Below are positions 15,038-64,000 of a DNA stretch of 64,000 bases, one piece after another (position 1 is the first letter of the stretch; each line of letters begins with the position of its first letter). The notes below the pieces were generated by a model that made no database searches, was not told the origin of the DNA, and saw nothing but the letters and a program-made list of their open reading frames with translations. Source of the DNA: Longimicrobiales bacterium (lineage in GTDB: Bacteria; Gemmatimonadota; Gemmatimonadetes; Longimicrobiales; Gaopeijiaceae). The DNA is taken from NCBI GenBank assembly GCA_965219445.1, contig CBDCNQ010000002.1, positions 128,001 through 192,000 on the forward strand. Reading direction: 5' to 3'. Position numbers and translations under genes: made by a program.

Positions 15038-15134
15038 GGGGGCGGAGGAGGTCTGGTGGCCTCACTGGTCTTCAAAACCAGCTCGCCCGGCTAAACCCCG
15101 GGTTGGTGGGTTCGATTCCCACACGCTCCCGCCA
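15038..15134 (+). tRNA. selC: tRNA-Sec (anticodon UCA)
   Basis: 97 nt; extended acceptor stem, 6-bp D stem with 4-nt loop (GAGGTC-TGGT-GGCCTC), anticodon arm CTGGT-CTTCAAA-ACCAG, long variable arm, T arm GTGGG-TTCGATT-CCCAC, encoded GCCA end. Confidence 0.95.
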
Positions 15135-49026: not shown

Positions 49027-49392
49027 GCCTGGTAAGAAGGGAACACCGAAACCTTATCGCAAACGGGCCTCCCTGGGCCAGGCTTTGCAAGCCAGAGGTT
49101 GCCGGGTCGCATCTCTGGGCCGGTTCGTGTGTCGGTTGGGCCGGTTCTTGTGTCGATTCAAAGCGGCAGATGTGAGCATCGGCTCGCGGCAAGAGTAGCA
49201 AATCGTGCGCCCTGCCAAGGGTTTGTGTGGTTTCTTGCCGTAAAACGCACAACTTGAATCCGATACCGTCCAATGATTTCCGGGTAGGTGCATAACATCC
49301 AGTATTTACAACAGGTTACGTAGTTTCTTTCTTGTCTCGTTCTGCCAGCAGTGCCCTTTGCGATCCCGTTCCATCCCAGTTATGATTGGGGG

Positions 49393-50613
49393 ATGGATAA
49401 TGTGATTCGATCTCCCGTCAAGCGCCGCCTAGGCAAGCCCAAGGGCCGCCATCCCCACAAGCGGCTCTCGACCGCCTTCGTGCGCTCGGCACCGCCCGGC
49501 AGGCACTGCGATGGCAACGGTCTCTACCTTTACGTCCAGAAGACCGGAACCCGGAGTTGGATTCAGCGGCTCGTGATCCGGGGCCGCAAGCGCGAGCTCG
49601 GACTCGGCAACGCCCAACTGGTCTTGCTCGCCGAGGCGCGGGAGCAGGCGCTGGCCAACCGCAAGCTTGCCCGCGCGGGCGGCGATCCGCTGGCCGAGAA
49701 GCGGCGTTCGGCGGGCATTCCCACCTTCGCCGAGGCCGCTAAGCGCGTCATCGAGCAGAAGAGCGCCGGATGGCGCAACGCGGCGGTGCCGAGGAACTGG
49801 TATCGCAGCTTCGAGATTCACGTCTTCCCAAGGATCGGGAGGGTGCCGGTCTCCGAGATGACGAGCGCCGACGTGCTCGAGATCCTCACACCCATCTGGC
49901 ACGCGAACCCGCCGACGGCCCGGATCGTTCGCCACCGCATCCGCGCCGTGCTGGAATGGGCCATCGCCATGGACTGGAGAACGGACAACCCGTGCGACCG
50001 GCTCCTGCCGGTGCTCGGCTCCCAGCAACATGTCGTCAGACACCGGAAGGCCCTGCCTCACCGCGAGGTGGGGGCGGCCATCGAGAAGGTCCGGGCGGCG
50101 AAGGCGGGCAAGGTGGACGCGCTGGCGTTCGAGTTCATGGTGCTCACGGCGGCGCGGGGCGTCGAGGTCCGCGGGGCGGTATGGAGCGAGATCGACCGGG
50201 AGGAGCGCGTCTGGACGGTCCCCGCGAGCCGGATGAAGAGCCTGCGCGCGCACCGTGTGCCGCTGTGCGGCCGCGCGCTGGAGATTCTCGACGCGGCGCG
50301 GAAGCTGGGCGGCGGCGGGAGTCCGATCGTGTTCGTCGGCAAGCGCGGCAGAGAGGTGGGCGGCGAGCAGATGGGCCGGCTGCTCAGGAAGCACGGGATC
50401 GCGGCGGTGCCGCATGGGTTCAGGTCGTCGTTCAGGGACTGGGCCGCCGAAGAGACGGACCACCCCCGCGAAGTCGTCGAGGCGGCCCTGGCCCATGTAG
50501 TCCGGAACCCGGTCGAGGCCGCCTACATGCGCTCCGACCTGTTCGAGCGCCGGCGTCGGCTCATGGACGATTGGGCTGCCTACCTGAGTAGGGAGCTTAG
50601 GGCAGGTCCCTGA
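49393..50613 (+). CDS. P4-like tyrosine integrase with arm-binding domain
   Basis: PGRHCDGNGLYL, RELGLG, TAARGVE, HGFRSSFRDW, ALAH, AAY (R-HxxR-H-Y set); start uncertain (49351-49402). Confidence 0.93.
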   Translation: MDNVIRSPVKRRLGKPKGRHPHKRLSTAFVRSAPPGRHCDGNGLYLYVQKTGTRSWIQRLVIRGRKRELGLGNAQLVLLAEAREQALANRKLARAGGDPLAEKRRSAGIPTFAEAAKRVIEQKSAGWRNAAVPRNWYRSFEIHVFPRIGRVPVSEMTSADVLEILTPIWHANPPTARIVRHRIRAVLEWAIAMDWRTDNPCDRLLPVLGSQQHVVRHRKALPHREVGAAIEKVRAAKAGKVDALAFEFMVLTAARGVEVRGAVWSEIDREERVWTVPASRMKSLRAHRVPLCGRALEILDAARKLGGGGSPIVFVGKRGREVGGEQMGRLLRKHGIAAVPHGFRSSFRDWAAEETDHPREVVEAALAHVVRNPVEAAYMRSDLFERRRRLMDDWAAYLSRELRAGP

Positions 50614-50823
50614 TCGTTCAGATCCAACAATGCAGCCGAAGCGTCTCTCTGAACCACGCGCGTTTTCCGATGAATACGGAGGGTTGGGGAGTTCTTGCCT
50701 CGTCCTCCTCGATGCCTTAGCCGGAAGCCCGTCAGCTTCTCCCCCCTCGCAAGGAAGGGAACTCACCAAGTTCGGTGACCTAAGGCGCGAGGTACATCAC
50801 GCCCAGGCTTGAACATGACGACA

Positions 50824-52071
50824 CTAGGGCCCACCCCGTGCGTAAGAGACGACCATCCCGCCCTGGTGTAGACGATAGTGTTTTGGGAATCCCTCCTCGA
50901 AGGGGTTGGGGAGCCAGTCGATTTCGGGGTCTGCCGAAAGGGCGTCGCGCACCCTCAGGATCCGCCATCGCCACGTGTCACCGCGACGCCTGGCAATGCG
51001 AGTCGCCGCTTCGATTTCGCTAATCCCGAGGTCGAAGGACGTTTCTTCCCCTTTCGTTGCCTTCACCTCGACGTGCCACCTGATGCCGTAGTGGTTGAAC
51101 CGGAAATCGAAGCCGTGCCCGTCGCTTATCTCGTCCTTTTCGCCGTCTACGAGCGGGAGAACCTTCAGCCGTGACTCCGAAACCCATGCGCTCGGCCGCA
51201 CCGCTCGGCCCCCGAACTCCTTACGTAGATATCGGTAGGCGTGCATTTCCCCGACAATGCCAACCACTTCGGCCTCCTCCGGGGACAGACGCCGATGCCC
51301 GCTCCTGCCTTTCTTCTCCCCGCCGCCTCCAGAGCCGCCACGGCGCGCAGGCGGGCCAAGCGGCGTGAACTCGTCCTCGGCTGCCCGTGGCCCGCCGGGG
51401 TACTCCAGCGCGACGGTGTGCTGCCGAAGCAATTCCGTGTAATCGATCGTCTCGGTCTCGAAGGACTCGCCCGCGATCTCCACCTTTCTCCGCTTCCGCG
51501 CCGCCTCCCTCTCCTGCTCCGCTCGATCCCGTCGCCTCTCTTCGATTGCTTCCTCGTCGAGTCCCAGCCGGTCCCTGATCCCTTGTGGATCCGAAGGCTC
51601 GCCGCAGGCCGCGGCGAACCGCTCGTCGCCCAGGGCGGCCAATGCGAGACGCCAGAGGTCCGCATCGGACCACAGGCAAAGGTACGCCTCCGCCCCGAGT
51701 TCGGGAGCCGTCGGCCGATCGGGCACGGCGGATTCCGGGAGGTGAACCTCAAGCCAGGTTCGGTACAGGTCGTGCACCTGCAAGAGCACCCTGTTGAACT
51801 GGTCGCCATTGAGGCGGGCCGTGTCGTACGGGTCCGGGTCGATGCCGATCCCGCTTTCCTCCAGGGCAACCCGGAGCTGAGGAGCCGACGTCGCACCCGG
51901 CAGCGCTTCGAGGTTCCCCGCGTCCACGATCTCCCGGTAGCTCTCGCGGAGGGCGTCGACCACGGCCGCGAACGGGACTTCCTACCACCGGTTCGACCAG
52001 TTGTCAGGCGCCGTGAACGCGCGCGTCGCGCCTTCGATCTTCCGGAACAGCAGCGGCTCGCCGCAATCGAT
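50824..52071 (-). pseudogene. C-terminal part of a DUF3883/NOV (PD-(D/E)xK) nuclease-domain protein
   Basis: GIVGEMHAY, DGHGFDF, VEVKAT, GISEIEAA; in-frame TAG just upstream of 51963 and 5' end cut by the IS3 terminus. Confidence 0.75.
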
Positions 52072-52169
52072 TGCTCCAACCCCCGTTTCCTGGTCCAGGG
52101 TGACTAACGTAGGAGGGAGCTAGATTGGGGGCCGACACGACCCGTAGGAAGCGGGGGAGGGGGAGTCCG

Positions 52170-52436
52170 ATGCGGAAGACGAGATTCAGCGAAGAACAGA
52201 TCGCTATGGCGCTGCGCCAGGGCGAGGTTGGCACGCCGGTGGCGGAGATCATCAGGAAGCTTGGGATCAGCGAGCAGACGTACTACCGGTGGAAGAGGAA
52301 GTACGGCGGGCTCGGAGTGTCGGAGCTTCGTGAGCTCAAGGCGATCCGAGAAGAGAACCGTCGACTGAAGACGCTGGTGGCGGATCTGTCGTTGGACAAG
52401 ACGATCCTGCGGGAGGCGCTGAGAAAAAAATGGTGA
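52170..52436 (+). CDS. IS3 OrfA
   Basis: RFSEEQI, GISEQTYYRWKRKYGGL, EENRRLK; A7 slippery site at 52424-52430. Confidence 0.92.
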   Translation: MRKTRFSEEQIAMALRQGEVGTPVAEIIRKLGISEQTYYRWKRKYGGLGVSELRELKAIREENRRLKTLVADLSLDKTILREALRKKW

Positions 52437-53296
52437 GCCCGACGCAGCGAAGGGCGGGAGTCCGGTGGGCGCGGGAGGCCTACCAGCTACCCGAGCGTCG
52501 GGCATGCAGGGTGATGGGGTTCTCCCGATCCACGGAACGCTACCAGAGCGTGCGGCCATCACGGGAGCCGTTGCGGGCTCGGCTGAAGGAGCTGGCCGCG
52601 GTTCGTGTGAGCTATGGGTATAGACGGTTGCACATCATGCTGCGCCGCGAGGGCTGGCCGGTTAACCGGAAGCTGATCGAGCGCCTGTACCGTGAAGAAG
52701 GTCTTACGCTGAAGCGGAAGAAGCCGAAGCGCCGTCGCAGTGCTGTGCGACGAGAGCGATCCACTCCGGCTGCGTCGGTCAACGAGCGGTGGGCCATGGA
52801 TTTCGTGCACGATACGCTGTCCAACAGCCGGACGGTGCGGGTGCTGACGGTTCTGGATGTGTACAGCAGGGAGTGCGTGGCACTTGAGGCTGGTGTAGGG
52901 TTCAGAGGCGAAGACGTGGGCCGGGTGCTGAGTGCGGCAGCCGAGGAACGAGGGAGCCTGCCGAAGATGATCTCGGTGGACAACGGGACGGAGTTCACTT
53001 CGAGAGCGCTCGATCACTGGGCGTACTGGAACCGGGTCAAGCTTGACTTCAGCCGGCCGGGAAAGCCGACCGACAACCCGTTCATCGAGGCGTTCAACGG
53101 CAGCCTCAGGCGTGAGTGCCTATCGCAACATTGGTTCGTCGATCTGGACGACGCGCAGCAGACCCTCCACCATTGGAAGGACGAGTACAACAACGTGAGA
53201 CCACACAGTAGTTTGGACGACCAGGCCCCCGCCCACTTCGGCGGCGGCGGCCACTTCATCCCAACCCCAAATCGGCTCGGTTTCTCACCCTCCTAG
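52430..53296 (+). CDS. IS3 OrfB DDE transposase (-1 frameshift fusion)
   Basis: YGYRRL, WAMDF, DNGTEF, PGKPTDNPFIEAFNG, RPHSSL. Confidence 0.93.
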   Translation: MVSPTQRRAGVRWAREAYQLPERRACRVMGFSRSTERYQSVRPSREPLRARLKELAAVRVSYGYRRLHIMLRREGWPVNRKLIERLYREEGLTLKRKKPKRRRSAVRRERSTPAASVNERWAMDFVHDTLSNSRTVRVLTVLDVYSRECVALEAGVGFRGEDVGRVLSAAAEERGSLPKMISVDNGTEFTSRALDHWAYWNRVKLDFSRPGKPTDNPFIEAFNGSLRRECLSQHWFVDLDDAQQTLHHWKDEYNNVRPHSSLDDQAPAHFGGGGHFIPTPNRLGFSPS

Positions 53297-53430
53297 TGGA
53301 CCAGATTCGGGGGGCGGTGCAACAGGTGCTGGGACTAACATAGGATGTGGTACCGCTCTTGGGGGCAGGTCAGTCGCGGAAGCCCATATTTCGGGGGGTA
53401 GCCGAACAGATGGCACAAAAGGAAATCACG

Positions 53431-54336
53431 ATGAAACTCAGAACAACCGTGCTCCTCGCCGCATTGCTCGCCACAGCAGGGTGCGGAGGCGACGACGACA
53501 GCAGCGGGCTGCTGTCGCCCACCGCCCCGTCCCTGGTAACCGGGGTCGCAGCCCAGAACGACGCTGGACGTCAGAGCGACCCGCAGGTCGGCGCAACCAG
53601 CCTGATGGATGGTATGCGGGCCGCGATGGCGCCGGCAACCACCATCGACTTCTCCAGCGTGACATGGAGCTGGAACTCGGCAGAGACCCACCTGGAGCCG
53701 TCCAACATCCCGGATTCCAGGGTGCAGGCGGGGTCCAACGTCTGGCAGCGAGACGACGACACCGGGCTGATCCGGATCTTCAGCGACGAGGATCTCGGCG
53801 GCTGGACCTTCGTGACCGCCGGGTCCAGCTGGCCTCTGAGCACGCGGAGGCCAGGGCTGTACGTGTCGAACATCTCCGCCGCCGATGTCGAGCTGATCGC
53901 CTCCGGAGGCGGTGGCAGCGGCGGAAACGGGCCTCGGGGAGAGCCCAGGAACGAACCTGGGAACAGACCTCGTGCGGCGTGCACACTGGTCTACAACTAC
54001 CACGATTCGAGCGCGTACGACGGGCCGCTCGGCCACTATGTGTACGCGACTGACGGGGCGGGTTACACGCCATCAACGGCACAGGCCGGCTACATTGGAG
54101 CCTTCATCCACCTCGATCTATCAGGGGACTGCTCCGGCGGAAGCTCGGCCGATCGCACGGCTCTGTATAGTCTGGCGAAGCCAAACTCGTTCAGCTATCT
54201 CCGCTACGATCACTATGCGGAGTGGTCTCCCGGCGGGTCAGGCTCATGGCTGCAAAATGTAGAGGACTACGGCGCAATTCAAGGACGCCACTACTACTAC
54301 ATCGGTCAGGCGATGGCGAACTTGTCGACCCTGTAA
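53431..54336 (+). CDS. Hypothetical lipoprotein (possibly 5' part of a frameshifted longer gene)
   Basis: ATG after AAGGA; MKLRTTVLLAALLATAGC lipobox. Confidence 0.65.
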   Translation: MKLRTTVLLAALLATAGCGGDDDSSGLLSPTAPSLVTGVAAQNDAGRQSDPQVGATSLMDGMRAAMAPATTIDFSSVTWSWNSAETHLEPSNIPDSRVQAGSNVWQRDDDTGLIRIFSDEDLGGWTFVTAGSSWPLSTRRPGLYVSNISAADVELIASGGGGSGGNGPRGEPRNEPGNRPRAACTLVYNYHDSSAYDGPLGHYVYATDGAGYTPSTAQAGYIGAFIHLDLSGDCSGGSSADRTALYSLAKPNSFSYLRYDHYAEWSPGGSGSWLQNVEDYGAIQGRHYYYIGQAMANLSTL

Positions 54337-55019
54337 CCAAGATGTGGGTCCGTGTGATACTTTTTGGGACAAACGGCGGGACACAGAAACGAGGGCGGAT
54401 CGGATGGGCCGGGTCTGCCGCGGGGATGCCGGACATCACCATAACCTGGAACGGACTTGACTCACAGCTCATCCCGCCACGGCCGCCGCGCCCCACTCCA
54501 CGCGTGGAGTGCGTAGAAGGCTGCGTCGTCCAGCAAGGGCGGCGAGCTGGAACTCAGGCTCGTGCTGGACGAGCCTCTGATCCCCGGTTTACCCAAACTG
54601 CTCCGACCCAGATTCGACCCCCCGGCCATCTTCAGAGAGGTGACGGGGCGCACGCAGAGAGATGACTGGCGGGAGTGCGGAATAGGCCAGACCGACCGTG
54701 CCGAGTGCCTCTGGCGTGTCAAGCAGACCTCCGGCCCGGGGTCACTACTCGGCGGATCGTCGTACTCGTTCCTCTGGAAAGCACCGAGAGATCCAGGCTC
54801 GCACAAAATCAAAATCGGGTACGAGTACAAGGCCTGGGGTAGCTTCAAGGAATGGGGCTACAGAGATACCGCCTTCGAGGGCGTCGACGTGACGGTCACC
54901 GTGCCACCACCTCGGGCGGACAGAGGCCCGGTGACGACGCCGCTGGTGTGTGCCCCTCTGATCCCACCGGACACCGGATGGCCCTGCTCCGTGAAGATCA
55001 ACGCAGAGGACGAGAAGGG

Positions 55020-55370
55020 ACGACCCTCATCAAGCTGCACCGAGGCCGTCCCAAGATCTCGTACCTGTCCTATCCCGATTTCGACGAAGTGGCTCACCCA
55101 ACACTTGCGTTCTCCGTAGTTGTCCGGCTGGACACCATGGTGGCGACATTCCATGACTTCTCCAGGCGAGGCAACCCTCCGATCCTCCACAGGAAAGAGG
55201 CTTTCGTACCGGCAGACTATCCCTGTCGTGAGCGCTTCGCTCGATTGACGCGGCAGGAGGAAAAGCGTGGCCTACTCAATCGGGGAGAGATCGGTACGCT
55301 GCGCGGGTGGCATGAGCTCCTCGAGGCAGAGGGCTTGAGGGTGGCCGGGCATGTCCTGCGGCGGCAGTAA
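55020..55370 (+). pseudogene. C-terminal fragment of DNA phosphorothioation-associated putative methyltransferase
   Basis: LIKLH..PKISYLSYPDFD..HP.L...NPPILHRKEAFV..DYP..FARLTRQEE..GLL..IGT..GW recognised from that family; no own start. Confidence 0.7.
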
Positions 55371-55608: not shown

Positions 55609-55842
55609 GTGATCGAATCCGCTATCACGTCGAAGGGGCAAACGACATTGCCCAAGCCCGTACGGGAAGCGCTCGGCATACGGCCTGGGGACCGAGTGCG
55701 TTACGTAATTCTGGACCATGAGGTTCGAATCATCCCGGTGCGGCCCGTTCGTCGCCTGTATGGCGCATTCCAGTATGACGGTCCGCCTGTGACGCTGCAG
55801 GACATGGAGCGCGCCGTCACCGAGGGAGCGGTCGGGGAGTGA
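55609..55842 (+). CDS. vapB: AbrB/MazE-type antitoxin (VapB)
   Basis: GTG after GGAGG; ITSKGQTTLPKPVREALGIRPGD. Confidence 0.88.
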   Translation: MIESAITSKGQTTLPKPVREALGIRPGDRVRYVILDHEVRIIPVRPVRRLYGAFQYDGPPVTLQDMERAVTEGAVGE

Positions 55843-56246
55843 TTGCGCTCGATACGAATGTCCTGGTCCGATATCTGGTGGCCGATGACGCCAAGCAGGC
55901 GGAAGCAGCACGGGTGCTGCTGGCGGGTTTGACAGCTGAGCGGTGCGGCTTTCTGTGCCGCGAGGTGACGGTAGAGCTTGTTTGGGTGCTGGAACGGGCC
56001 TATCGATTCTCCCGTGACCGGATTGCGACCGTGCTCGAGCAACTGGTGGCGACTGAAGAGCTCGAGCTTGAGGCTGTCGATGATATTGCACGCGCAGCCC
56101 GTGGTTACCGTCGAGGCGGAGCTGACTTCTCCGACCTGATGATTGCCGCCGCCGCAAGAAGGTCCGGAGCGCATCCTCTCTACACTTTCGACCGACGAGC
56201 AGCCCAACTTAAGGGAGCAGAACTGGTGAAGGAGCCAAGCTCATGA
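55839..56246 (+). CDS. vapC: PIN-domain toxin VapC
   Basis: MIALDTNVLVRYL, ELVWVL, DFSDLMI, YTFDR. Confidence 0.92.
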   Translation: MIALDTNVLVRYLVADDAKQAEAARVLLAGLTAERCGFLCREVTVELVWVLERAYRFSRDRIATVLEQLVATEELELEAVDDIARAARGYRRGGADFSDLMIAAAARRSGAHPLYTFDRRAAQLKGAELVKEPSS

Positions 56247-56924
56247 GTACAGACTTGGAACACAGCACCGTTGGCACACCTAACCGTGAGGCCGATGATC
56301 GAATGTCAGTTTTATCCACCCTGGCTCATCAGGCTGTGACAGCAGTACCAAAGCTCGTGATTTCAGATCGATTGCGTAAGGCCGCCAAGTACGATCCCTC
56401 AAAGCAATACGAGTTTCGATATCGCGCGAAAGGTCATCGCGACCTTCCCCACGTTGTCAAGTTGTCTGGAGGACGCTCAAGCGGGATGCTCCTGTTCGCG
56501 CTCCTTGAGAACAAGATCCTCGACCCAGACCGAGGAGACGTAATCGTTTTCAACAACACCTCGGCGGAGCACCCGGATACGTACCGCTTCACGCGAGACT
56601 GCAAGGTCGCTTCTAGCCGTTACGGAGTACCGTTTTTCTGGGTTGAATTCCAGACCTATGAGGACGCCCGCAACGGCGAGTGGACCCGCATTCCATCCTA
56701 TCGCCTCGTCAATGACGAGATCAGATCTCCGGACAATCCAGATGGATTTCATTGGCGCGGCGAGGTCTTTGAGGAGTTGCTATCCTGGTCAGGATATATC
56801 CCGAATCAGTTCAGTCGCATCTGCACCAGAAATATGAAACTAGAGGCAACGCGCCTGTTCCTGAAAGACTGGTTGGCATGCAAGGAGTCCATCCCGAGGT
56901 TGGGTCAATAGGTGTGTAAATGTT

Positions 56925-58169
56925 TCAGGCGGCGTTTTTCCGCTGTTGGGTTGAGACGGGCTTTCCGTCTTCGAACTTTCTTCCTTCAAATACGTCCTTG
57001 AGGAGGTGAGGAGCGTCGAGCCTTCTGAAGCGCTTCTCCGCCACCAAGAGCAGCTTCCAGATCAGCGCCGTAGCGCTCTCGACCCGCTTGAAGCGCTTCG
57101 CCGCCGTTGTCCTGAGCCGTACTGCGGCAAAGGGGCTCTCGACCACGTTCGTCGTGCGTAGATGCTTCCAGTGGTCCTCGGGGAAGTCGTAGAACGCCAC
57201 CATCCGCTCCCAGTCGTCCTCGAGTACATCCACCGCCTTCGGATACCACGGTCTGTAGCGCCTGGCGAACGCCTCACGGGCCTTCAGCGCCTCGGACCGC
57301 CTCGGTGCGTAGACCACGGTCCTGAGAAGGTCCTTCGCCTCGCTCTGCTCCCGCTGAGGCAGCCGGTCCAGCACGTTCCTCATCTTGTGGTTCCAGCACC
57401 GTTGCTCGCCCGCCTCAGGCCATACCTGCCGTACTGCGCCCCAGATCGCCGCGTTGCCGTCCGCCATCAAAAGCCGGGGCGCCTCGATGCCGCGTGCCTT
57501 CAGATCCCGCAACACCTCGGACCAGGACTCGACCGACTCTCGGTAGCCCGATCTCAGGGCCAACACCTCCTTCGTACCATCTCGCATCGCACCGAGAACC
57601 ACCAGCAGCGCTGCCTTGTCCCGCTCGAGCCCCGCCTTCACGTAGATCCCGTCCGCCCAGACGTAGACGACCTCACGGTCGGCCAGCGAGCGCTTCGACC
57701 ATTCCTCGAATTTCCTTGTCCATCCCGCCCGCAGCCGCCAAATCGAAGACTTCGACAACGGGGCCCCCTCGCCCAGCAGGCCCCGCATCGCCAGCTCGAA
57801 GTCTCCCTCCGCCAGCCCGTGCAGATACAGCTCCGGAAGCAGAGCACCCACCTCCTTCGTCCGTCGTGCGAACAACGGCAACACCCGACTCTCGAACCGC
57901 TCCTCAATGCCTCGAACCCGGGGCCGTCGGAGCATGATCGTGCCCGAGCTCATCGCCAGCCGCCGAGCCTTGCCGTAGCCGTTGCGGTAGCCTGGCGCCG
58001 GGTCTACGACCGTCTTCCGCTCCGACTTCTCCCGGCCGAGCAACTCCGTCACTTCCTCCTCCAGAATCCGCTGGACCATCTCCTGGGCCTTCTCACGAAC
58101 CAGCGCTTCCAAGCACTCCCACGTCGGCGTGCTGGACTCACTCTCGGGTCCCACCATATTCTTCCTCAC
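56925..58169 (-). CDS. IS256 (Mutator) transposase
   Basis: YRNGY, LYLHGL, WADG, LMADG, QRCWNHK, LRTTNVVES. Confidence 0.95.
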   Translation of the reverse strand: MRKNMVGPESESSTPTWECLEALVREKAQEMVQRILEEEVTELLGREKSERKTVVDPAPGYRNGYGKARRLAMSSGTIMLRRPRVRGIEERFESRVLPLFARRTKEVGALLPELYLHGLAEGDFELAMRGLLGEGAPLSKSSIWRLRAGWTRKFEEWSKRSLADREVVYVWADGIYVKAGLERDKAALLVVLGAMRDGTKEVLALRSGYRESVESWSEVLRDLKARGIEAPRLLMADGNAAIWGAVRQVWPEAGEQRCWNHKMRNVLDRLPQREQSEAKDLLRTVVYAPRRSEALKAREAFARRYRPWYPKAVDVLEDDWERMVAFYDFPEDHWKHLRTTNVVESPFAAVRLRTTAAKRFKRVESATALIWKLLLVAEKRFRRLDAPHLLKDVFEGRKFEDGKPVSTQQRKNAA

Positions 58170-58272
58170 GAGGCATCGTTCCTTTCCCCCGGGCGCTCAC
58201 CCGGGATTCGCTGGTTAACTTCTTACTACCTAGCGGAAAGGGGTCGCCTCTTTTTTTACACACCCTTCTATG

Positions 58273-58653
58273 GGGCTGGCGGTCAAGACGCACCTTCCCC
58301 ACGCGCCGTCGGCTCATTTTTTGACCGTCGGCGTCCGCATGGTTTGGATTGCCCGGTCGACGACTCAGGGTGGGGAGGGGTGCGCTCGCAGGGTCCGCAT
58401 CGCAGTCCGGAAGACGTTCACAGCCGTCGCGTTCTCCGCTCTGGAGCGGGAACCATCCTTCTATCTGGGACTCTGTGGCCCATCGCTTCGTTCGGCTCTT
58501 CCAGGGGTGCATAGCCTTTGAGTGGGGGCTTGGGCTCTCTGCCCCGGCCCACGGTGTGTATGGATGCTGTCCCCTGTAACCGGTTCGCTTCCGTTTCGTC
58601 GGACCCCATGTTGTGACCGCTTTCGACCCCACGCTCGCCGATCCCAGGCCGGT
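58273..58653 (-). ncRNA. Candidate seek/bridge RNA region of the IS110 element
   Basis: ~380-nt non-coding end; contains ATAGAAGG and TCAAAGGC (RNA sense), both matching the reconstructed target. Confidence 0.55.
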
Positions 58654-59709
58654 TTACTCCGTCGCTTCCAGTCTCTTGGGGTCGTACGCTTCGCCCGTGC
58701 GCCACACCGCTAGCACGATCGAGGCGAGCTGACGCGCGATCGTCAGCTTCGCCAGATTCGGCTTCGTGCCCCCCTCCAGGAGTCGCTCGTAGTGGCGGTA
58801 CAAGGGTTCGTTTTCGGCCCGACCGATCACCGTCGTCGCTGCGCCCTTGAACACACGCTTCAGCGTGTGGTTGAAGTTCCGATTCAGCCCCCGCGTCTGC
58901 TGTACCGGTTCCCTTACCCACCGCCCACCCGGACCCCGCACCCAGTCCGACGAGCTCCGCATCACGACGCCCAGTCCGCAGTACGCCCAGAACCTGCTCC
59001 GGCTCTGGAACCGGTACGGCGTCACCACCACCGGCAGGAGCTCCGCCGTCCGGATCGGACCCAGACCCGGGCACGTCTTCAGCACATGCCACTCTCGATG
59101 CTTGCGTGCTTCCGCCAGCAACGCCTTCTCGGCCTTCGCCCTCAATGCCACGAGTGCGTCGTGCTCCTCGTACAGCAACCCGGCCGTCGTCCTGCTCGCT
59201 TCCGGCAGCTTGGCCAACCACTCCTCCCGGTCGCGCTTTAAGTAGACCGAGCGCCCCGCGCCGTAGGCCACTCCTCTCGAGCGCAGCACGCTCTTGAGCC
59301 GGTTCTTCACCCGCACCGTGTCGCCGACCAAGAAGTCGTAGCTCTTCGCCCGTTCCCCCAGCCGCCTGAACTGGCCCCGGTTCTTGTAGACCGTCGTCTC
59401 CAGTGATCCGATCCGCAGCTTCTCCGCCAGGGCAAACGCGTCCAGCTTGTCGGTCTTCGGGCCCCGGCTCTTGCCGACCCCCGCCACCGTCAGCTCCTCC
59501 ACGTGCGGCTTCAGCACCTCGTACAGCCACCCCGACAGCGTCCCTTCTTCCAGGCATAAGTGCCGGTTCCTCGGAATCCCTCGCAGCACCTCGATCAGCG
59601 CCCGCGCGTTCGTCTCCACCACCTGCGAGCCCAAGCGCTTGCCGCTGGGGCCTACAATCCCCAGCGTGCAGCTCGACGCGTGTGCGTCGAGTCCGATATA
59701 CCTCTCCAT
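58654..59709 (-). CDS. IS110 recombinase/transposase
   Basis: ATG 59709 after GAGGAG; YIGLDAH, LEEG, KTDKLDA (DEDD), PGLGPI, YCGL, SSD, ARQLA. Confidence 0.93.
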   Translation of the reverse strand: MERYIGLDAHASSCTLGIVGPSGKRLGSQVVETNARALIEVLRGIPRNRHLCLEEGTLSGWLYEVLKPHVEELTVAGVGKSRGPKTDKLDAFALAEKLRIGSLETTVYKNRGQFRRLGERAKSYDFLVGDTVRVKNRLKSVLRSRGVAYGAGRSVYLKRDREEWLAKLPEASRTTAGLLYEEHDALVALRAKAEKALLAEARKHREWHVLKTCPGLGPIRTAELLPVVVTPYRFQSRSRFWAYCGLGVVMRSSSDWVRGPGGRWVREPVQQTRGLNRNFNHTLKRVFKGAATTVIGRAENEPLYRHYERLLEGGTKPNLAKLTIARQLASIVLAVWRTGEAYDPKRLEATE

Positions 59710-60693
59710 GGGCATCCTCCTCTTGGGTAGGACGGGTTGGGTTGCTTGCTTGCGCGAATAATGATGAACGCGCACCCGCTCCCGGAGGAGAACGCCTCTT
59801 CGTCTTCGGGCTGCTTCGCTGCTGATCGGTACCGGTAGCGGTCGCCATGCCCCTATGATGCCTTTGATCCTAGCTCTCCATCCCCCGGCTAGGCCACTAC
59901 GGGAGTCGTTCTCGGGTCGATATCGCCATGATGTATCAGCGACATCGTCGCAACCGAGGCGGGGTCCCCAAAGAGGTCTTTGCCGAAAAGAGGAAATACG
60001 CACTGACACGTCCTTACGTCCGCTCGGAACAGCGATACCGAGATTTCTCCTCGGTTTGGCGCCCCTTCCATAATGCTGCCCTCGAGGGCAGAGCCTACGG
60101 GGACCAGGCTTGGTTCGGTGACGGAGGCGCCGAGTACCTAGCTTTCGTCGGACTTCGGGCAGACGAGCAACTTCGTGTTAAGCGTGTCGAGGCACGAAAC
60201 GCCGGTCCGGGAGCGTCCGGCTATGAGGGCGAGCATGTATACATGCCCTTAGCCGACATGGCTGTAGCCCGGGACGATGTGAACACGTTCTGGGACCAAC
60301 AAGATTGGGACCTCTCGTTGCCCAAGGCCGGAAGCCTCTCCAACTGCGTCTTCTGCTTTCTTAAGGGTGCCGCCAATCTAAGAGCTGTCCACAACAAAAT
60401 GGAAGAACAGAAGCAACAAGATAATCCCGGATTTGGTTCACTAGTGGGTACACCTTCCGATGTGTCATGGTGGATACGCATGGAACAAACCTATGGCCGA
60501 GACCTAGACGCCGAGGAGAGAGAAATCACAGGGACACCAGAGCACAATTTTCTTGGTTTCTTTGGAGCATCGAGTACCTTTTCCTATGAGTTTCTAGCTC
60601 AGAGTGACGAGTGCGAGATCACGAAATATTCGAGCACACTCCTACCGTGCGACTGTACGGAATGACCATCACATACACCCGCTGAGCCGCTAG

Positions 60694-61875
60694 ATGCGAT
60701 TGGTCAGCGACCGGGTAGCCTATCTGGATAACCAGGCGACCACGCCGGTAGACCCCCGAGTCCGCCACGCGATGTTCCCTTTCTTCGATAGTTGTTTTGG
60801 GAATCCGCATTCGAGGGACCATGTGTACGGATGGAACGCCACAGACGCTGTAACTGTGGCACGAGCTCAGGTAGCACAGTTCATCGGTGCAGACGATCAC
60901 GAGATCCTCTTCACGTCGGGAGCTACCGAGTCATGTAACCTAGCGCTACGTGGCATCGCGAGGGCCTCTGACGGTAAACGGAATAAGCTGATCACCGTGG
61001 CGACGGAACATCCTGCCGTTTTGGAAACAGCACTGGACCTGCGACGTCTCGGGTTCGAGGTGGTTGTCCTACCGGTGTCCTCCGAAGGTCTCCTCGATCC
61101 TTCTGACCTCGAGCGGACACTCGACAACCGAACCCTGCTCGTGTCTATCATGGCGGCAAACAACGAGATTGGTGTCCTCCAGGACCTTACTGACATCGCC
61201 CACTTATGCCATGCCAAAGGTGTGCTGTTTCATACCGACGCAACGCAAGCTGCTGGGCGGATTCGTATCGACGTAGGCACATGGGACGTTGACCTCCTTA
61301 GCCTGTCTGCCCACAAGTTCTACGGTCCAAAGGGCGTAGGAGCTCTATTCGTTCGATCCGGTGTATCGCTTGAACCAATGCTGACAGGTGGTGGCCAAGA
61401 GCGTGGGTTACGACCAGGAACAGTGTCACCAGCCCTCACGGTTGGCTTCGGCGAAGCATGCCGTATAGCTGGAGAGGAATGGAGAGACGATACCCGGCGA
61501 ATGTCTGAACTCACGGTACGCCTTAGGCAGGGCCTGCATGCCTTGTGTCCGAACATCCGTATCTTCGGCCATCTGCAACAACGGCTGCCGGGTTCCCTCA
61601 TGGTGGGTTTTCCGGGAATTCCGGCGAGCGAAGTCATTTCTATCGTGTCGGATCGCATAGCGGTGTCTACTGGTTCCGCGTGTGCTTCCGGTACCGCCGA
61701 GGCCTCGAAAGTCCTTCTCGCATTAGGTGTGGCACCGGATATCGCCATGACGGGTGTGAGAGTGAGCTTGGGACGCTTCACGAAGGAATGCGATATCGAG
61801 ACTGCACTCGCTGCCCTGTCTGACATTGCTCCGATTGCCGCCAGGAACCGACCCTACGATGACAAAGTTTCTTGA
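60694..61875 (+). CDS. Cysteine desulfurase (IscS/DndA-like)
   Basis: YLDNQATTP, FTSGATES, HTDATQ, SAHKFYGPKG (PLP Lys), STGSAC (catalytic Cys). Confidence 0.95.
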   Translation: MRLVSDRVAYLDNQATTPVDPRVRHAMFPFFDSCFGNPHSRDHVYGWNATDAVTVARAQVAQFIGADDHEILFTSGATESCNLALRGIARASDGKRNKLITVATEHPAVLETALDLRRLGFEVVVLPVSSEGLLDPSDLERTLDNRTLLVSIMAANNEIGVLQDLTDIAHLCHAKGVLFHTDATQAAGRIRIDVGTWDVDLLSLSAHKFYGPKGVGALFVRSGVSLEPMLTGGGQERGLRPGTVSPALTVGFGEACRIAGEEWRDDTRRMSELTVRLRQGLHALCPNIRIFGHLQQRLPGSLMVGFPGIPASEVISIVSDRIAVSTGSACASGTAEASKVLLALGVAPDIAMTGVRVSLGRFTKECDIETALAALSDIAPIAARNRPYDDKVS

Positions 61876-62413
61876 CCTTCGATTTGCACCAGGATCTCTG
61901 ACCGGTTTCACTCCGCGCGGTATCGCAGGGTTCGGAGACCTGCGGCCGGCAGCGGTGGTCCGAGAGCTCATTCAGAATTCCCTTGATGCCACCGCCGAAG
62001 CTGGGGAAACATCCGCGATCGTCCGCTTCCGGCTTACTCAAGTGAGAACGGACGATATCCCAGGAATTCGGAGCTACAAGAAAGCTTTTTTTGAAGCAGT
62101 GCAAAGTAATAAACGGAGCAATAATGGCACACTCCCGAGTCAAGCAGCGAGAGTCGTCCAGGTCATCAGGGAGGCACTGGATCGGGACAAGCAAGACGTT
62201 CTCTCTGTACTCGATAACGGTATTGGCTTGAACGAAGCTCGGTTGACTGCTCTGCTGAGTGATGGAATGAGTGTCAAGAGTGACGCGGCTACAGGCACGT
62301 TCGGCAACGGACACTCCGTCGTCATCCCGGCGTCCGACTTCCGCTACGTGCTTTATGGAGGAGTTACCAACTCGTACAAGAAACTTGTGACCTCATCACC
62401 TAAGGCATCGTAA
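61859..62413 (+). pseudogene. GHKL/HATPase-fold ATPase, probably 3'-truncated
   Basis: Overlaps the desulfurase end; RELIQNSLDA (N box), DNGIG (G1), GTFGNG (G2); stops at 184 aa. Confidence 0.7.
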
Positions 62414-63147
62414 TTCTCTTTCGCACGATACAGACGCGTCCAAGTATCAACCAGCTGTTCGGGCACATCATGGATCGTCATGATCAGCGGGGTATCGGAA
62501 GCAACTCGTCCCAAGCCAACACGGTCAACACGACGGGCACTACGACAACCACAGCAACCCCAACCGCCGCTGCCGGCGGGGAGTCGCCTTGTGGACGCTC
62601 ATCGGAACCGCGCATGGTCCTAGGCGCCTCGTCTCGGTGAGTAGGTACTCAGGATCGTGGCACGATACCGAACAGCGTTGCGACTCCACAGAGCTCTGTG
62701 GTCATGGCTACCTGAAAGGTGAACGTGGACCCCCGCTTTTTCAAGCTTCGCGATCAGATAGGTCCAAGAAATCTAGGGCCCCCGATTTCTCTGGACGGTG
62801 GATTTGGCAAGGAGCCGGGGTCCCAAGAAAGAGGGGGTTGCAAATGCTTTCAAAGGCTGGGGAGTCCGAAGTGAACGAAGGTCGCACACGACACCGCCAT
62901 CTATCGGGCTTGCAGGAAGGAGCACCGCCGCCTGCTCGAGCGATCCGGCGAGTGCGCCTCGACGGCGAGCTCAAAAGCACCGTCGCGCGCCGGAGCGAGT
63001 CCGCCCGTGCGCGAGACGGCTGGCGGGCTGCGGAGGCCGGGCGGCACCACGCTGCCCGGCAACTGGAGCTACTCATGGACGCGGAGGGCGGCGTTCTCTT
63101 CCCCGATGCAGCAGATCGAGTACATCGACTCCGACGGGCGGACCGGC

Positions 63148-63330
63148 GGTGACGAGCCAATCGGCGTCGATATCGAGCGATTGTTCTGCTGTCTGTGTGG
63201 TCACCGCAACAACGCCGTCACGGCTGCCGCCCTTTGAAAGGGCCTGCTCTAGCGCATCATCGAGCAGACGGCGATCCTCTGGCGCAAAGGTGCAAAACGT
63301 CCGTGGTGGGGTGCGACCACGCCTCTGCAC
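63148..63330 (-). pseudogene. cas3: Cas3 helicase fragment
   Basis: GVVAPHHGRFAP/EDRRLLDDALE...VAVTTQTAEQSLDIDADWLVT; frameshift at near-duplication TTTGCACC TTTGCGCC. Confidence 0.75.
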
Positions 63331-63539
63331 GGCGGTTCGAGATGCCCGCCAGTCATTCCCGCCATTTGATGGCGTTTTCTCGCCCTTTAAGCACGGCAGC
63401 ATCAGGCATGGTAGGACGGCAAGAACGGCAGATCATGCAGTCCTAGTTGAACTTAGACGATTTCTTGCCGGGGTTCACGCTCACTGGGATGTGCCTGATG
63501 TGCACTCGCCGATCAGCACCGACGCTCGCCGATCCGCGT

Positions 63540-64000
63540 TCAAAATCGGCCTCCAGGGAGCCGTCTCGAGCGCCATGTCGCGAAGCCGTGGATCATCGTT
63601 CCGGGACTCGAGGATCGGTGGAGGTCGTTCAACTCGACGATCCGCTTGAGGCAGGCCTGCAGGTCGCCATACTCTTTGAGCACCCGGTCATCCTTGGCGC
63701 GGATGGCCCGCTCGATTCGGGCGATCTCGCGGCGGGCCGCACTGTCGGGTTCCGGAGCGGCGGAGGGGCCGGATGCTGTAGATGTGTTGGTCCAGTTCTC
63801 GAGGATCGTCTCCGCCCGGCCCCGCTCGTCCGTTGTCCGGACGACGACCACGACTTCGATCCCGCGGCCGCGATCCCAAAGCGCCTCCCAGAGTTCGCGG
63901 TGCGCGGCACCCCAGGAGCGGAGCGCCGTCGGGGTCTCGTGGCCCGGATCGACGTAGACGAAGACGGCGCGCTCGGCGTCCAGCGCGACCGGGAGCCGGA
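63540..64000 (-). CDS. Hypothetical protein (5' end beyond window)
   Basis: Open frame from window edge: RLPVALDAERAVFVYVDPGHETPTALRSWG...WRSRRLPGGRF. Confidence 0.6.
   Translation of the reverse strand, partial: RLPVALDAERAVFVYVDPGHETPTALRSWGAAHRELWEALWDRGRGIEVVVVVRTTDERGRAETILENWTNTSTASGPSAAPEPDSAARREIARIERAIRAKDDRVLKEYGDLQACLKRIVELNDLHRSSSPGTMIHGFATWRSRRLPGGRF

Follow-up and report, generated by a model that had tools for sequence, protein, structure and literature searches.

The window analysed here (64,000 nucleotides, positions 128,001 to 192,000 of contig CBDCNQ010000002.1 in the Longimicrobiales bacterium assembly GCA_965219445.1) carries, at 55609 to 62413, a row of genes built around a PP-loop enzyme resembling NinC of phage lambda. 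The PP-loop gene, hereafter PP, is split by an insertion and lies between a toxin–antitoxin pair and a cysteine desulfurase gene, which is followed by the 5' end of a GHKL ATPase gene. The features, with the nearest upstream neighbour, are as follows:

55014..55370, plus strand: 3' remnant of a TIGR04096 gene ("phosphorothioation-associated putative methyltransferase"), a neighbour and not part of the core
55609..55842, plus strand: vapB-type AbrB/MazE antitoxin (PF04014, E 2.7e-10), a local passenger
55839..56246, plus strand: vapC PIN toxin (PF01850, E 4.3e-14), a local passenger with an ATGA overlap at the PP start
56243..56895, plus strand: 5' part of the NinC-like PP-loop gene, with SGGRSS and RICT
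56888..56895 and 59877..59884: the copies of the 8-bp target-site duplication TCCATCCC, flanking the insert
56896..59876, minus strand: composite insertion element of 2,981 bp with imperfect inverted ends and IS256 and IS110 transposases (Pfam)
56925-58169: IS256 transposase, inside the composite element
58654-59709: IS110 transposase, inside the composite element
59885..60665, plus strand: 3' part of the PP-loop gene, with GLRADE, NCVFC and a terminal CDC
60694..61875, plus strand: intact cysteine desulfurase of IscS/DndA/SspA type, 393 aa, with SAHKFYGPKG and STGSAC motifs
61859..62413, plus strand: 5' fragment of a PDC-M33A-like GHKL ATPase gene, in which homology stops near 62370

Deletion of 56896-59884, comprising the insert and one TCCATCCC copy, yields a single 477-codon PP-loop frame with SGGRSS at position 75, RICT at 192, GLRADE at 307, CVFC at 372 and CDC at 473. 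This restored frame and its motifs had been put forward in the original prediction, and intact alleles exist elsewhere: uninterrupted 477-aa database proteins are identical to the rejoined protein at 471/477 and 465/477 positions, and contigs of runs X2 and X4, two of the four compared, carry the empty site, with an exact jump from 56887 to 59877 and eight letters shared. The insert, previously taken for an IS256 block, does contain an IS256 transposase but is not a plain IS256, since an IS110 transposase also lies inside. Approximately 480 nt of non-coding DNA separates the two transposase genes, and the IS256 ends bound the whole unit. This composite element is present in 16 full-length copies genome-wide, with an exact 8-bp duplication at five, and the exchanged flanks seen at several copies suggest recombination between them.

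The vapC/PP overlap, the 28-nt gap before the intact desulfurase and the desulfurase/GHKL overlap are all present in the sequence as earlier described. The desulfurase scores 466 bits against the PADLOC SspA model and 464 bits against DndA, remaining under every NCBIfam equivalog cut-off. The GHKL gene had been correctly assigned in family and position but not in completeness: its open reading frame (ORF) of 184 aa, with about 170 homologous codons, is a 5' fragment of a protein that measures about 650 aa in relatives. Contigs of X2 and X6, two of the four runs compared, match the window up to 62370 and then diverge, and a profile search of the window's own genome (91.8% complete) returns no match to genes B and C, which lie downstream in relatives. 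The locus is broken twice, by the insertion and by truncation of GHKL with loss of B and C, leaving a pseudogenised remnant, in agreement with the inactivation proposed before. The neighbouring TIGR04096 remnant covers positions 360-476 of 478 in the NCBIfam model (E 2.6e-30), and its left break lies near 55014, where contig pieces begin or end at 55014-55015.

The analysis covered 108 bacterial PP-gene loci, and the 86 full-length PP proteins were clustered at 90% into 70 clusters. As judged from profile comparison, the PP enzyme is nearer lambda NinC than SspD or DndC, which upholds the earlier assignment. Specifically, the family profile aligns with lambda NinC over 190 columns in hhalign (99.65%, E 4.8e-25), sharing the motifs SGGR(T/S)S, FCT/xCT, G(I/L)RADE and NCxxC, and the enzyme matches the phage family PHROG 424 at E 2e-28. 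The SspD match is partial (E 3.5e-10, 38 bits, with lambda NinC itself at 52 bits), the match to BrxP of BREX is weak, and the window protein gives no DndC match in PADLOC (E<=0.05) or NCBIfam (E<=0.1), one relative reaching E 0.0013. Within the window's own genome, neither the DndC nor the SspD family search gives a match, the latter being insensitive, as it missed the split PP gene too. SGG(R/S)(S/T)S is found in 67/70 clusters, NCxxC in 70/70 and a terminal CxC in 67/70, with SGGKDS in 0/70. The enzyme of intact relatives carries five conserved cysteines; from the chemistry of adenosine 5'-phosphosulfate (APS) reductase and TtuA, RxC and CxxC may form a putative three-cysteine Fe-S site and CxC a putative sulfur relay. 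The predicted structure (predicted local distance difference test, pLDDT, 81.6) is closest to APS/3'-phosphoadenosine 5'-phosphosulfate (PAPS) reductase (Z 10.3, root-mean-square deviation 3.9, 192 residues aligned), with the tRNA thiolases NcsA and TtuA at Z 9.0 and 7.8. Foldseek with this model gives no match at E<=0.001, and sequence searches of the PDB with the window protein and family alignments A1-A4 give no significant match.

The PP enzyme differs from lambda NinC and PHROG 424 in having two large inserts and in its position within a chromosomal operon. NinC is annotated as "unknown", and NinC-like PP genes have at least 547 viral matches; a C5 methylase is present in 11/80 phage NinC-like loci. 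C5 methylase–PP fusions are also found (P0179; L125, 5897-8326; L128, 587-2404; partial in P0166 and P0168), and because of these fusions and the methylases in phage loci, DNA is the probable substrate of the PP enzyme. The L125 fusion adjoins ParB, topoisomerase and DUF3577 genes without the GHKL-B-C trio described below. Fusions of the L125/L128/P0179 type are possibly double anti-restriction writers on an integrative element.

In relatives, the conserved unit consists of the PP-loop enzyme (400-480 aa), a GHKL ATPase (about 650 aa), protein B and a DUF6339-like protein C (about 280 aa each), with a desulfurase and a DUF262-HNH nuclease as optional members. GHKL shares the strand of PP and lies no more than 6.5 kb away in 62/70 clusters, PP being first in 45 of these and last in 17. 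Counted per locus, 85 of the 108 have GHKL and 75 the complete GHKL-B-C trio, 35 have a desulfurase and 17 have DUF262; 23/108 loci lack GHKL, 21 of them short-flanked by the cut-off used, with L026 and L125 among these probably true negatives. In the sample of 401 genomes from the window's phylum, PP occurs in 15/401 and GHKL in 14/401, all 14 being PP-positive, although these genomes are not independent, as 13 of the 14 other PP genomes belong to one family. Titled relatives come from Pseudomonadota, Acidobacteriota, Latescibacterota, Spirochaetota and Myxococcota, and the PP-GHKL linkage holds over two gene orders, a GC content of 25-75% and several phyla. The conserved operon with a GHKL partner envisaged in the original prediction is borne out, its desulfurase applies to some relatives and not as a fixed part, and B, C and the optional DUF262 protein had been overlooked. 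The DUF262 protein combines DGQQR with a C-terminal HNH-like motif and scores as HEC-05/GmrSD-like, its SspE match reaching just E 0.002. Protein C matches DUF6339 weakly, and its model (pLDDT 93) shows structural similarity limited to the C-terminal helical bundle (Z<=6.7), ESM Atlas providing no usable match.

Several relatives display rearranged versions of this unit. L033 (2761-17336) holds two divergent tandem copies of the operon, in which the C genes are duplicated and a B-C fusion is present, and L042 contains a C-C fusion. In L030 (11395-18182), a PbeA/PbeC-like cluster, with its CxC ABC ATPase, and an RNA polymerase alpha-CTD/sigma-4 protein lie between PP and GHKL; a similar cluster with an alpha-CTD/sigma-4 protein lies immediately upstream in L021 (1654-9197). 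Long ORFs in L036, L042, L025, L032 and L047 were rejected as fusions, being shadow extensions or frameshifts.

The vapBC pair falls outside the real unit, and its proposed role as effector or built-in toxin is rejected on neighbourhoods. A PIN gene stands beside PP in only 2/108 loci, both times downstream and in another clade, and no AbrB/MazE-type antitoxin match is found beside PP homologs, upstream DNA being long enough to reveal vapBC in 88/108 loci. Contig comparison places vapBC next to PP only in close strains.

The GHKL-B-C trio equals, in gene order and sizes, the PADLOC candidate PDC-M33 (A, B and C/DUF6339). GHKL matches PDC-M33A in 16/16 members, and the relatives' A, B and C match at E 4e-34, 2.5e-7 and 1.6e-3, those of B and C being weak. 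The PDC-M33 genes stand in tandem in relatives, the window keeping the A fragment only. This module was already listed as a candidate system, but PDC-M33 occurs mostly without a PP gene, and the PP-linked trio scores one third of the canonical copy (116 vs 305 bits). Two other phylum samples, searched ATPase-first (6 new matches/391 and 9/391), provide 15 loci, of which nine carry a C5 methylase (with a Z1 helicase and DUF4420 nuclease in four of these), one PP and five neither; the trio also lies beside methylases and without PP at four loci on plasmids and at three more in genomes. Such linkage recalls the paraMORC/MORC restriction-modification operons, in which the accessible part of Iyer et al. 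2008 (PMC2292703) joins a GHKL ATPase with a C5 methylase, Vsr, Z1 helicase and PD-(D/E)xK nuclease, and a similar arrangement is seen in relatives L221, L222, L231 and L232. The same part of that paper leaves PP-loop, PAPS and desulfurase unmentioned, and neither Z1 nor Vsr is seen in the PP-linked clade.

A 40-row tree groups all of the 19 PP-linked ATPases in a single clade (Shimodaira–Hasegawa approximate likelihood ratio test, SH-aLRT, 100), distinct from the other PDC-M33-like ATPases, with 15 methylase-linked and six writer-less rows outside it; support in a 26-row tree is 99. A C5 methylase occurs in just 1/85 PP+GHKL loci (L108, 4.3 kb distant), the PP enzyme standing where others carry the methylase. 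Because all PP-linked ATPases fall in one clade and the trio elsewhere occurs with a C5 methylase or alone, the data suggest a methylase-to-PP-enzyme swap resembling that from BREX type 1 to type 4; its putative direction, from methylase to PP, is limited by the midpoint rooting of the tree. The PP link is tight within its own ATPase clade, though the trio mostly occurs without a PP gene.

The operon shares features with several established systems without coinciding with any of them. Like DndABCDE and TdpABC, it has a PP-loop enzyme, here a putative writer with putative Fe-S cysteines, and Tdp reportedly proceeds through an adenylated intermediate. DndB, DndD and DndE find no match among the conserved PP neighbours (GHKL, B and C), and an uninformative DndD search of three genomes gives no match anywhere, controls included. 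The likeness to SspABCD-SspE extends to a desulfurase (SspA or a substitute; 466 bits in the window, adjacent in 27/70 clusters), a PAPS-reductase-fold enzyme, an ATPase and a DUF262 nuclease, SspD being the top defence-model match; in contrast, the PP operon has GHKL where Ssp has a P-loop ATPase, its PP enzyme is NinC-like, and SspB and SspC match none of the conserved neighbours. The absence of dnd and ssp partner genes noted for the window thus extends to the PP loci. BREX type 4 (brxPCZL), as presented in the accessible part of PMC12914056, likewise uses a PAPS-fold writer instead of a methylase, and its desulfurase is sporadic (56%, accessible part of PMC12839542). BrxC, PglZ, BrxL and DUF4007 are absent from PP operons, the sole BREX signal being the weak BrxP match to the PP-loop enzyme.

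Collectively, the gene content is best explained, with moderate confidence, as a restriction-modification-like defence operon that would mark self DNA by adenylation followed by sulfur, the mark being read by a GHKL-driven complex. The PP-loop enzyme would act as writer, adenylating a DNA site with ATP, and the adenylate would then be exchanged for sulfur through the three-cysteine Fe-S cluster (RxC, CxxC) and the C-terminal CxC relay, with the operon's own or a housekeeping desulfurase as sulfur donor. The GHKL-B-C complex, together with DUF262 where present, would attack unmarked DNA. The mark is tentatively a backbone phosphorothioate (PT) and, somewhat less likely, a thio-base. PbeA-like genes near 8/70 PP clusters vs 0/14 ATPase-first loci (two later ATPase-first loci giving weak PbeA-model matches), a PbeC-like ABC ATPase in eight loci only and TIGR04096 in three loci and the window are the neighbours concerned; the PbeA-like and TIGR04096 genes lean weakly to PT, and the accessible part of PMC10853773 reports Pbe/CxC systems without PT. 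BREX type 4 offers a precedent in which a PAPS-type enzyme replaces the methylase and PT is made (PMC12914056, accessible part).

A number of observations weigh against this self-marking system. The desulfurase adjoins PP in only 27/70 clusters and DUF262 is found in only 13/70; GHKL is missing beside PP in L031, L048 and probably L026 and L125, and the trio lacks a detected writer in six loci (L223, L225-L229), where it may need no mark. No nuclease motif was found in B or C by alignment-based PDB searches for both and structure comparison for C. Non-sulfur PP-loop enzymes (GMP, NAD and FAD synthetases) reach Z 8-9 against the PP model, the PT systems in the accessible part of PMC12914056 rely on P-loop NTPases and not GHKL, and the ATPase trees are quick, midpoint-rooted searches with 17/19 PP-linked rows chosen via the PP gene.

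Some of these points also favour an unlikely alternative. Here the GHKL-B-C trio (PDC-M33) would defend the cell by itself, as an abortive or DNA-sensing system, and the PP enzyme would travel along as an accessory with RNA, nucleotides or proteins as its substrate, or stem from an anti-restriction gene captured from phages or integrative and conjugative elements. The six writer-less loci, the separate PADLOC listing, the common occurrence of NinC-like genes in phages, with the trio beside 0/80 of them, and the L125 fusion among ParB, topoisomerase and DUF3577 genes would fit; the persistence of PP-GHKL linkage across gene orders, GC content and phyla argues against it, as does the methylase in 1/85 PP+GHKL loci, expected if PP took its place. 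It is also improbable that the PP enzyme writes a sulfur-free mark, for example by adenylating or amidating a base or a phosphate, with the desulfurase just building the Fe-S cluster. Such a role would suit an optional desulfurase and the level fold scores of non-sulfur PP-loop enzymes and thiolases, and DndA is said to assemble the cluster of DndC. However, the terminal CxC (67/70 clusters) comes in addition to the three putative cluster cysteines, the PbeA-like neighbours give a weak hint of sulfur, and housekeeping enzymes often stand in for DndA/SspA too (PMC12914056, accessible part). That the operon is a divergent form of Ssp or BREX type 4, or that vapBC is its effector, is highly improbable and largely refuted by neighbourhoods: despite the weak SspD (E 3.5e-10) and BrxP matches, the vapC overlap at the PP start and a HATPase_c_3 domain label near 221/1056 canonical-cluster SspD homologs (Supplementary Data 2 in the accessible part of PMC12914056), the conserved neighbours match no SspB/SspC/BrxC/PglZ/SspFGH model, SGGKDS is absent (0/70 clusters) and PIN is adjacent in 2/108 loci.

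The operon thus appears to be a real, undescribed and widespread variant of modification-based defence, the defence role being predicted from gene content. The literature search found no description of it, most subscription journals being outside its reach, and it retrieved no paper for PDC-M33 or for DUF6339. M33 is absent from the accessible main text of bioRxiv 2024.01.29.577857, DUF6339 and NinC from the accessible part of PMC12914056 (including 12 of 13 supplements), and GHKL from the accessible parts of PMC10853773 and PMC8092258. According to its accessible part, PMC12914056 counts four established PT systems and its screen demanded a P-loop NTPase neighbour; a GHKL-linked system would escape that screen because of this requirement. 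New here are the tested NinC link, the rejected vapBC claim and the evidence for a writer swap. If confirmed, the swap would provide another way of placing sulfur marks on DNA, or else a novel DNA modification; the PDC-M33/DUF6339 module would gain a function, and what lambda NinC and its hundreds of phage homologs do would become directly testable. The window copy is dead, and its value lies in the family. More speculatively, and on balance doubtful, the operon may represent a further, independently evolved DNA sulfur-marking immunity, in which the cytosine methylase of a paraMORC restriction system gave way to a phage NinC-type enzyme and a GHKL clamp replaces the P-loop ATPase; by extension, the many phage NinC proteins, including that of lambda, would be DNA-thiolating anti-restriction enzymes.

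Upstream of the locus, a decayed island spans 49351-54336 of the window, containing a tyrosine integrase (49351-50613), a C-terminal fragment of Tiamat TmtA (50824-51963, minus strand), an IS3-like element (52125-53296) and a 329-aa protein of no assigned family. Past the GHKL break, 62774-64000 consists of multi-copy repeats, for which the rest of the genome has many partial matches, and a tRNA-Sec gene lies at 15038-15134.

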